A DNA stretch of 49,438 nt from a virus (IMGVR_UViG_2861048470_000005); one strand, 5' to 3'. Numbered from the stretch's first letter, positions 16,830 through 18,339 are shown. Notes: generated from the letters alone by a model not told the origin. Made by a program: numbers and translations.

Positions 16830-16942
16830 CTATATTCATTCTTCCAGATTCCTTCCGGCAGAGCCTTATACTGAAATATACCTGGCTCAGGATATTGTTG
16901 AAAATATTTTATGTTTGTCAAAAATAAAAGTTCTGTTAAGTA

Positions 16943-17296
16943 TTGATTGAGTGTTTGTTATACGGTCTAATGGTTTTTTCAGCATTAAATATTTATCATT
17001 CATATGGTGTGGGTAGAGTGAATATTGATGAGGCGTCGGGGTGTTTCATCCTTAGGCAGCGTATTGATATAGTCAATGCAGGACGAGCAAAGGCCTTCAG
17101 CCGTTTGACAGTTTTGTTCTGTACTCCTGATCGTCTTTCGGGAAGAGACGTTATTATTCTGAATAGTGATGCTATACAGAGGGTTTGCGATGAGTTCATG
17201 GTTGCTAATTCAGAATTATTTGCTCTTGTTCAGGAGTACAACAGAATAGCCAGGACCTGTGGTATGGATGAACTTCGGATTACTCATCTGGGGTAG
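16943..17296 (+). CDS. Hypothetical cargo protein downstream of the tRNAs
   Basis: 117-aa ORF with no recognised motif, in the slot occupied by stx in Stx phages. Confidence 0.3.
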   Translation: MIECLLYGLMVFSALNIYHSYGVGRVNIDEASGCFILRQRIDIVNAGRAKAFSRLTVLFCTPDRLSGRDVIILNSDAIQRVCDEFMVANSELFALVQEYNRIARTCGMDELRITHLG

Positions 17297-17687
17297 ATAC
17301 ATATCTGGATTATCACTTGTTACGGTAAAAAGTGATTGCTTACTGTTTTTGTGAGTGGCATTGCAGCAGCCGGATAATGTCAGTGCTGGCTGACGGTGTG
17401 CTGGTGGCGGGTGTGGTGGTTGTTGCTTTCCCGTTGCTGAAAAAGAAAACGCCAGACTGTTAGCCGGGTATCAGTTAGCGGGAGAAATTTTTAAATACTT
17501 CACAATTCAGGCGGTTGACTGTTGTCTGGTTTGCGGGGAGTTTGTTAAAAGAAACTGGCATGGTGAATCCCCCTGTGCGGAGGGGCAATCAGCGAGTAGG
17601 TATATGGGATAATCGCGGATTCAGGTGCTGGTACTGAATTCACCGGGAGGCACCCGGCACCATGCAATGGCACATAGCGCCACTCTC

Positions 17688-17716
17688 CAGCCCCTCTCCG
17701 GAGGGGCTGTTTATAT
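17688..17716 (+). terminator. Candidate rho-independent terminator
   Basis: Hairpin CAGCCCCTCTCC-GG-AGGGGCTG followed by TTTATATTGATTTTG. Confidence 0.4.
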
Positions 17717-17743
17717 TGATTTTGTCAGATGTGAGTAAACTCC

Positions 17744-18079
17744 TTATGGACTTTGTTGTTTTAGTCCATAAGGACATATTTGCAGAGTGCAACGGTTATT
17801 AAAGCATTCATTCAATACGTTATCTGTATTTGTAGGACATTCCTGGCTGTTTTTGATTAAATTCCAGAATGTTTTATTGAATGGTACTACGTTGTAAATG
17901 GTTACAGGTAGCACTTTGTTATTGAGCATGATACCTGTGTGAGTCAGTGTAAATATACTTTCAGGAGGTAAGAAAGCATCCGATTGATACCAGATTATTA
18001 ATTTTATTTTACTCCATATGACTGAAAAAGATATTCCGCATGATGGCTGGATAACTGTATCAATCACAATCCACTTCAT
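17744..18079 (-). CDS. Hypothetical Cys-containing protein in AT-rich cargo
   Basis: 111-aa minus-strand ORF in strongly AT-rich DNA, convergent with the preceding ORF. An 11-bp perfect inverted repeat (17743-17774) overlaps its stop codon. Confidence 0.3.
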
Positions 18080-18339
18080 TTAGCTTCCTTGTTTATGCCT
18101 TGCTGGTGATGTTCTGAAAAGTATAAATGATATTTTTGAATATAAACCATAGAGCAGAATTATTTTTCTGATGTTGTTTATTGTTTATTTAAATGCAGGG
18201 TGGTTTATATCTCGTCTTGTAGTTTATCCATGCATATCTGCTTGATGATCAGGTTTCTATTTAAGGTATGGTTTTGTGTTTTTTCTGTGTTACATGTCTG
18301 GTATTTTAAAGAATTATTTTTCAGATGGTGGAAAGAACC

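Follow-up and report, generated by a model that had tools for sequence, protein, structure and literature searches.

IraL of Escherichia coli CFT073, whose gene was formerly named ycgW and was placed on the potB prophage, binds RssB and stabilises RpoS in exponential phase, as established by two-hybrid, co-purification and immunoblot experiments; laboratory strains lack the gene (Hryckowian et al. 2014, PMC4045071). Its relative IraM of K-12 is a PhoP-induced anti-adaptor for which a structure with RssB has been reported (8TWD, PMC10844676). A second described component of such loci is the small RNA (sRNA) family STnc100, an element of which follows stx2B at a distance of 75 nt in Stx2 phages (PMC12370729). 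[quoted passage not shown] Here we analyse positions 16830–18335 of a 49,438-nt viral sequence (IMGVR_UViG_2861048470_000005; the whole stretch is hereafter referred to as the window), between the tRNA genes and the lysis genes of a lambdoid E. coli prophage. This segment is very probably the accessory ('moron') interval of a lambdoid prophage of the Qin/CFT073-potB type, in which iraL, an STnc100-family gene, an open reading frame (ORF) of 92 codons (ORF92) and a DUF3927 gene are functional units. Their positions are as follows.

17744–18079, minus strand: iraL, RssB anti-adaptor of the IraM/IraL/RssC family, 111 aa
18080–18324, minus strand: iraL 5′ untranslated region (UTR) and promoter region, about 30% GC
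17741–17774, minus strand: 12-bp perfect hairpin (arms 17741–17752 and 17763–17774) over the final codons of iraL and its stop
17529–17718, plus strand: STnc100/PasD-family sRNA gene (Rfam RF02076, 132.4 bits; gathering score 47)
16841–17499, plus strand: stx-equivalent slot of 659 bp, from the blastn map against phage Stx2_EH1910
17018–17296, plus strand: ORF92, the conserved core of a 117-aa ORF; GTG start, 92 aa, PHROG 2873
17332–17463, plus strand: DUF3927 gene, product of 43 aa with a single hydrophobic segment (Pfam PF13064, 95.6 bits; threshold 25)

An initial annotation, made from the sequence alone, had described the segment as uncharacterised cargo. It resolves instead into catalogued elements, one of which (IraL) has been characterised experimentally in an identical copy. 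The cargo is common and mostly described already, and only ORF92 is without a known function. The region should be annotated as iraL, STnc100, DUF3927 and a remnant of nanS-p; no new explanation is needed.

Identity of the minus-strand gene

Sequence identity establishes the minus-strand ORF, which the initial annotation had listed with its correct position and length as unrecognised, as iraL. Its translation is identical at 111/111 residues to the CFT073 protein WP_000871291.1 (potB prophage), which is the RefSeq protein at this position both in a strain identical to the window and in CFT073. The product scores 162 bits against NCBIfam NF007393 ('anti-adapter protein IraM'; cutoff 121), matches the solved IraM chain (PDB 8twd) with E = 9e-32 over residues 1–78, and is 62% identical overall to K-12 IraM.

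The IraM–RssB structure defines three clusters of contact residues, of which cluster I contacts the receiver (N-terminal) domain of RssB (PMC10844676). When IraL is aligned to K-12 IraM, all five cluster I residues (I4, I6, W22, K26 and I42) are identical. Cluster II retains C14, F18 and W30, with T13S and L75I changed, and cluster III retains I61 and Y62, with H63N and I64V changed. IraM contacts both RssB domains, whereas IraL is reported to bind only the N-terminal domain (PMC4045071); the identity of cluster I together with the changes in cluster III fits this reported N-terminal-only interaction. [quoted passage not shown] By contrast, the K-12 gene is chromosomal, lies beside the e14 remnant and outside any late region, and is regulated differently, and its product is 4 residues shorter.

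The closest described locus is that of CFT073, which has the identical 111-aa protein and shares Q, the tRNAs, DUF3927, the position of STnc100 and the nanS-p remnant, followed downstream by the P21-type holin, YdfR and lysozyme. The 5′ UTR of iraL is also the same, apart from two mismatches to the printed read obtained by RACE (rapid amplification of cDNA ends). The host strain differs, and the CFT073 prophage carries IS200 and a third tRNA upstream. Elsewhere it is only 83–98% identical to the window in blocks, the two prophages being mosaic relatives.

Of 5426 complete E. coli genomes, 1432 carry the iraL segment, and IraM-family genes occupy this position in 46 phage records, mostly of Stx2c and Stx2a phages, at 72–74% identity.

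The stx-equivalent slot and the adjacent STnc100 gene

Stx2a and Stx2c phages (for example Stx2_EH1910, 2851 and 1717) have the same gene order as the window, that is, Q, tRNAs, cargo, STnc100, an IraM-family gene on the minus strand, nanS-p and holin. In the blastn comparison with the Stx2a phage Stx2_EH1910 (L002), homology covers Q and the PR′/tR′ region up to 16540 and the tRNAs up to 16840, is absent from there to 17500, and then resumes with a stretch of about 71% identity that takes in STnc100, the iraM-family gene and the nanS-p N terminus. In Stx2_EH1910 the gap is filled by stx2A and stx2B, after which come STnc100 (4198–4413) and iraM on the minus strand; the slot of the window (16841–17499) has no blastn similarity to this stx2AB segment. 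The gap in homology thus delimits an exchangeable slot whose cargo in the window is ORF92 and DUF3927. The initial annotation had recognised the canonical toxin site and the lack of Stx genes, and both observations hold: no Stx-like ORF is found between the tRNAs and the holin, and no ORF there matches a toxin family in Pfam, NCBIfam or PHROG. By the same comparison, STnc100, iraL and nanS-p are backbone shared with Stx2a and Stx2c phages and not slot cargo. The phages differ from the window in their cargo (stx2AB there, ORF92 and DUF3927 here), in an intact nanS-p, in an IraM-family protein that is about 73% identical and in an extra methylase block after Q.

The sRNA gene that follows the slot lies, together with the DUF3927 gene, in a stretch of about 450 bp that had been taken to be free of ORFs, although a small RNA had been suspected there. 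The RF02076 match spans model positions 1–206 of 206, and the terminator-like hairpin noticed earlier is the STnc100 terminator, a G+C-rich hairpin with a T-run at 17688–17709. The RNA folds at −69.2 kcal/mol (z = −2.5), and the quantitative PCR primers of PMC12370729 match the window exactly at 17559–17578 and 17632–17651, as read directly from the sequence. Upstream, blocks of TTG(T/C)CT, 18 nt and TGtTAAAA are invariant in nine aligned copies, as are the columns of the core. In the window the candidate elements are a −35 TTGTCT at 17522–17527 and an extended −10 TGtTAAAAG at 17543–17551; we infer, and do no more than infer, that these blocks form a promoter of the extended −10 type belonging to STnc100 itself, from which transcription starts near 17557. 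Between the closing helix and the terminator the nine copies differ in sequence, in the manner of a diversifying seed region.

Family membership is firm: the covariance match lies well over threshold, and the gene sits, as STnc100, PasD1 and PasD2 do, after the Q/cargo region and before the esterase and holin genes. Made from its putative own promoter, the transcript would most likely act as an Hfq-dependent base-pairing RNA, an activity predicted by analogy with its relatives. The central and pre-terminator stretches vary between copies, so targets probably differ, and LpxR, to which PasD is typically linked, is absent here. A lenient Rfam scan of 16400–19100 gave no AgvB, AsxR or other sRNA beyond STnc100. 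On the opposite strand, the annotation pipeline PGAP calls a partial 'hypothetical protein' pseudogene (17548–17673) antisense to STnc100, a call that most likely arises as an artefact from the structured RNA gene.

STnc100 may alternatively serve mainly in cis, as a 3′ module that ends each cargo cassette with a terminator and a recombination anchor, and not primarily as a trans regulator; we consider this possible but somewhat unlikely. In its favour, at least one STnc100 unit comes after every cargo examined: stx2AB in Stx2_EH1910, a tolA-like gene in the bovine E. coli prophage L006, and ORF92 with DUF3927 in the window, while in L006 an AraC regulator and ORF92 homologue are followed by four further copies in tandem. 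Mosaic breakpoints also coincide with the unit's start (17500) or with the point at which the invariant core ends (17666). Against it, Hfq dependence and numerous RIL-seq partners are on record for the relatives, and the variable single-stranded stretch before the terminator resembles a diversifying seed; moreover, cis and trans roles are not mutually exclusive.

Junctions with three comparators fall at 16797–16840 (tRNA-Arg), 17500 (start of the STnc100 unit) and 17666 (end of the invariant core), which suggests a role for the tRNAs and STnc100 as recombination anchors; the comparators being only three, this is a lead and not a result. Cargo boundaries at tRNA genes and STnc100 units could help to explain the exchange of toxin and non-toxin cargoes. 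The more extended proposal, that ORF92 and DUF3927 are conversion or late-expressed cargo in the stx2AB slot, with the tRNAs and STnc100 as the anchors by which cargoes are swapped, is one to which we give limited credence. If true, the swapped cargoes among lambdoid prophages would comprise stx2AB, AraC-type regulators, tolA-like genes and ORF92; ORF92 would be a widespread, unannotated host-modulating factor in about one-fifth of complete E. coli genomes, including uropathogenic strain CFT073 and enterotoxigenic E. coli (ETEC); and STnc100 would be both an sRNA and a cassette boundary.

The bovine prophage L006 carries five STnc100 units in all (2667–2879 and 4639–5618). The four tandem units lie between the AraC regulator with the ORF92 homologue and an intact nanS-p.

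Transcription of iraL

The start of the iraL mRNA was mapped by 5′ RACE in uninduced, exponentially growing lysogens (PMC4045071). The published read, ACATCACCAGCAAGGCATAAACAAGG..., is found once in the window (minus strand, 18081–18112), differing at two positions close to its end, and this match places the iraL start at 18112 on that strand. Reading of the sequence gives a −10 element, TATACT, at 18125–18120. A search by eye for a PhoP box upstream of iraL yielded just one GGTTTA half-site at −35, which supports no claim. The AT-rich tail reported earlier is borne out (GC 0.30–0.36 over 17700–18300, compared with about 0.45–0.55 in the flanks); given the identity of the gene and its mapped start, the tail is iraL plus its promoter region.

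At the other end of the gene, the initial annotation had noted an 11-bp perfect inverted repeat; the repeat is indeed perfect, but its arms measure 12 nt. It folds at −18.8 kcal/mol (z = −4.3), and none of 200 shuffled sequences folds as well. No good U-tract follows, and the hairpin is absent from the Stx2a-phage and K-12 iraM loci. It appears to be a lineage-specific 3′ hairpin that resembles a 3′-end stabiliser or a weak terminator.

We infer from protein identity that iraL serves lysogenic conversion in the resting prophage, as demonstrated for the identical protein of CFT073, and is not a late gene. Transcription would run leftward in the resting lysogen, starting at a sigma-70 promoter of the gene's own within the AT-rich tail; IraL would then bind the receiver domain of RssB, RpoS would not be passed to ClpXP, and RpoS would accumulate during exponential growth. 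A prophage of this type would thereby raise RpoS in growing cells, an effect that has been suggested to aid niche adaptation of pathogenic E. coli (Hryckowian et al., PMC4045071).

The initial annotation had instead proposed that all the genes here, including the one on the minus strand, are late genes expressed by Q antitermination, as stx is. For the plus strand this model has some basis, as a Q gene (Pfam Antiterm, 182 bits) lies upstream, followed by a promoter-like site and a terminator (16517–16536), and ORF92, DUF3927 and STnc100 share the orientation of the lysis genes; ORF92 and DUF3927, being co-oriented with the late operon, would be transcribed by Q-modified polymerase after induction. 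For iraL it fails on orientation: the gene lies on the opposite strand, so that late read-through from Q would run antisense across it, and its start was mapped in cells that were uninduced and in log phase. STnc100 fits the model poorly as well, since PasD-type relatives have been detected in uninduced lysogens (PMC8550237) and each copy has the conserved promoter-like element. Late expression of the whole set is therefore, in our assessment, unlikely, and we retain the reading of iraL as a gene of the resting prophage.

ORF92 and the DUF3927 peptide

ORF92 belongs to PHROG 2873, a phage family without a characterised member, and matches phrog_2873 with 194.9 bits over profile positions 17–108 of 108. 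Among deposited phages, tblastn found it encoded in one record, mEp460_ev081, where the gene is unannotated. A profile search of 1.84 billion representatives returned only 21 relatives, including homologues of 91–95 aa down to about 33% identity, and a scan of species-representative genomes gave three loci, in E. coli, in a contig labelled as a Bacillota metagenome-assembled genome and in Citrobacter braakii. With 21 relatives and three loci, the family is narrow. The C. braakii homologue lies in a prophage between tRNAs and a holin–endolysin pair.

Comparison of homologues shows ORF92 to be a real, conserved gene under purifying selection. Homologues at 56–63% identity keep the frame, which is maintained over all 92 codons across lineages at 50–72% nucleotide identity; third-position changes are about twice those at first and second positions, and the ratio of nonsynonymous to synonymous substitution rates (dN/dS) is 0.26–0.29 at dS of about 0.9–1.1 (92 codons). 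ORF92 is conserved, sits at the stx position and is usually missed by annotators.

The initial annotation had given a plus-strand ORF of 117 aa (16943–17296). The ORF is present as described and contains a real gene, but is over-extended at its 5′ end, the last 92 codons from the GTG at 17018 being those conserved. An in-frame stop lies just upstream of this GTG in L006; the sequences upstream of it in L007 and L011 are unrelated, with only the GTG/VNID start in common; and PGAP calls the 92-aa form in strain ETEC4071. These observations set the gene at 17018–17296. That the gene is instead the full 117-aa ORF from the TTG at 16943 is improbable. In the window, CFT073 and L005 the frame remains open as far back as 16943, and some metagenome gene callers give 117–118 aa; set against this are the L006 stop, the complete upstream divergence of L007 and L011, the PGAP call in ETEC4071, the 91–95 aa of distant homologues and a predicted local distance difference test score (pLDDT; AlphaFold2) of below 50 for residues 1–23 of the long form, compared with 81.5 overall for the 92-aa form.

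In the AlphaFold2 model the 92-aa ORF92 protein has two long helices (residues 3–35 and 50–81) and is predicted to be a soluble antiparallel helical hairpin. Searches of Pfam, NCBIfam, PADLOC and PDB sequences gave no match. ORF92 would most likely be a protein-binding modulator, a function that is a guess.

The adjacent DUF3927 protein corresponds to PHROG 1470, labelled 'TciB-like', and to PGAP protein WP_000562553.1 in both the matching strain and CFT073. A literature search on the 'TciB' label found only unrelated papers. The product would be a 43-aa single-pass membrane peptide.

The segment containing ORF92 and DUF3927 is present in 1182 of 5426 complete E. coli genomes (at least 80% coverage). 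The block occurs in about 22–26% of complete E. coli genomes, and it is conserved at 95% identity or more in over a thousand.

Two observations concern the surroundings of ORF92. Directly upstream of the ORF92 homologue, L006 (3256–3981) and L005 (164–889) encode a 241-aa YdeO/GadX-like AraC regulator (phrog_1450; NCBIfam YdeO 119.6 bits, below cutoff), which in L006 is part of the cargo with the tolA-like gene. The codons ATA, AGA and AGG, served by the adjoining phage tRNA-Ile(CAT) and tRNA-Arg(TCT), occur at 8.6 per 100 in ORF92 and 5.4 per 100 in iraL (including six ATA), compared with 1.4–4.2 in backbone genes, although these are small numbers.

Status of the interval as a whole

A moron is an autonomous accessory transcription unit of a prophage late region, with its own promoter and terminator; of its further marks, the segment shows atypical composition and presence or absence between otherwise similar phages. 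The start of iraL has been mapped but its terminator hairpin is weak, and ORF92/DUF3927 has just a weak promoter-like match (16898–16925), with the STnc100 terminator downstream.

Several points weigh against treating all four genes as functional units. Fold searches with ORF92 gave generic coiled-coil hairpins only, so its role is a guess; its Shine–Dalgarno sequence is weak in the window; and PGAP omits it in the matching strain, in CFT073 and in all 18 full-length E. coli records listed. A generic promoter scan did not list the STnc100 promoter, which, like the start, is drawn from conservation alone. Finally, the −35 of iraL is poor (GGTTTA, by reading), and regulation may differ from that of a simple constitutive sigma-70 promoter.

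That the segment is inert debris of an Stx-type phage whose toxin genes were lost, its ORFs being accidents of AT-rich sequence, is highly improbable: the adjacent nanS-p is an internally deleted pseudogene, PGAP skips ORF92 in most records and the ORF antisense to STnc100 is spurious, but iraL is intact and identical to a protein of demonstrated activity, the ORF92 frame is kept with a dN/dS of about 0.27, no residual stx2AB similarity is left in the slot and the block is preserved in over a thousand genomes. The initial annotation had named degradation of known genes as an outcome that would count against it; this describes nanS-p, just past the segment, and not iraL.

Genomic setting and flanking features

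The 2.5 kb around the segment is 100% identical to several ETEC chromosomes and is found in 857 of 5426 complete E. coli genomes (at least 80% coverage); the best matches to the window are ETEC isolates. The gene order is RusA, Q, two tRNAs, the segment described here, a DUF1737 fragment, the P21-type holin, a YdfR-family protein, lysozyme and Rz. The principal flanking features are as follows.

15615–16436: Q antiterminator
16580–16655, plus strand: tRNA with CAT anticodon (Met according to ARAGORN; tRNA-Ile, the ileZ type of Stx phages, according to PGAP)
16756–16830, plus strand: tRNA-Arg (TCT), upstream edge of the exchangeable cargo slot
18325–18686, plus strand: remnant of the nanS-p 9-O-acetyl-sialic-acid esterase, internally deleted, with a DUF1737 N terminus and a C-terminal fragment in another frame
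18836–19051: P21-type holin

The nanS-p remnant is 90% identical to the N-terminal 62 aa and 48% identical to the C-terminal 31 aa of the full esterase. It matches Pfam DUF1737 and positions 582–632 of 634 of phrog_143, and is marked as a pseudogene by PGAP.

After Q, reading of the sequence reveals a PR′-like site (TTGATT at 16442–16447, 16 nt, TGgTAAATT at 16461–16469), followed by the intrinsic terminator. The site and terminator (16437–16545, plus strand) sit where lambdoid phages have the short PR′ leader RNA. A Trp_leader hit at 16437–16543 in the lenient Rfam scan was below threshold and was rejected, as it reflects the tR′ hairpin.

Just upstream of the holin lies a conserved element (18687–18806, plus strand) that is 93% identical to the Stx2a phage and ends in a 12-bp hairpin with a T-run (18769–18797; fold z-score −2.2). 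It has no Rfam match. According to Zhu et al., this is the location of PasA/PasC, and the element is a candidate for either of the two.

A 90-aa ORF (19366–19638, minus strand) runs antisense to the YdfR/lysozyme interval; both the matching strain and CFT073 have it as a 'hypothetical protein' in their PGAP annotation. Towards the end of the window, an IS009 RNA family match (RF02111, 225 bits) lies at 47863–48061 on the plus strand, and the same family occurs in the tail region of L007. The antisense sRNA DicF is present at 4537–4588 on the minus strand (Rfam RF00039, 76.7 bits, full model), which fits a Qin-type prophage.

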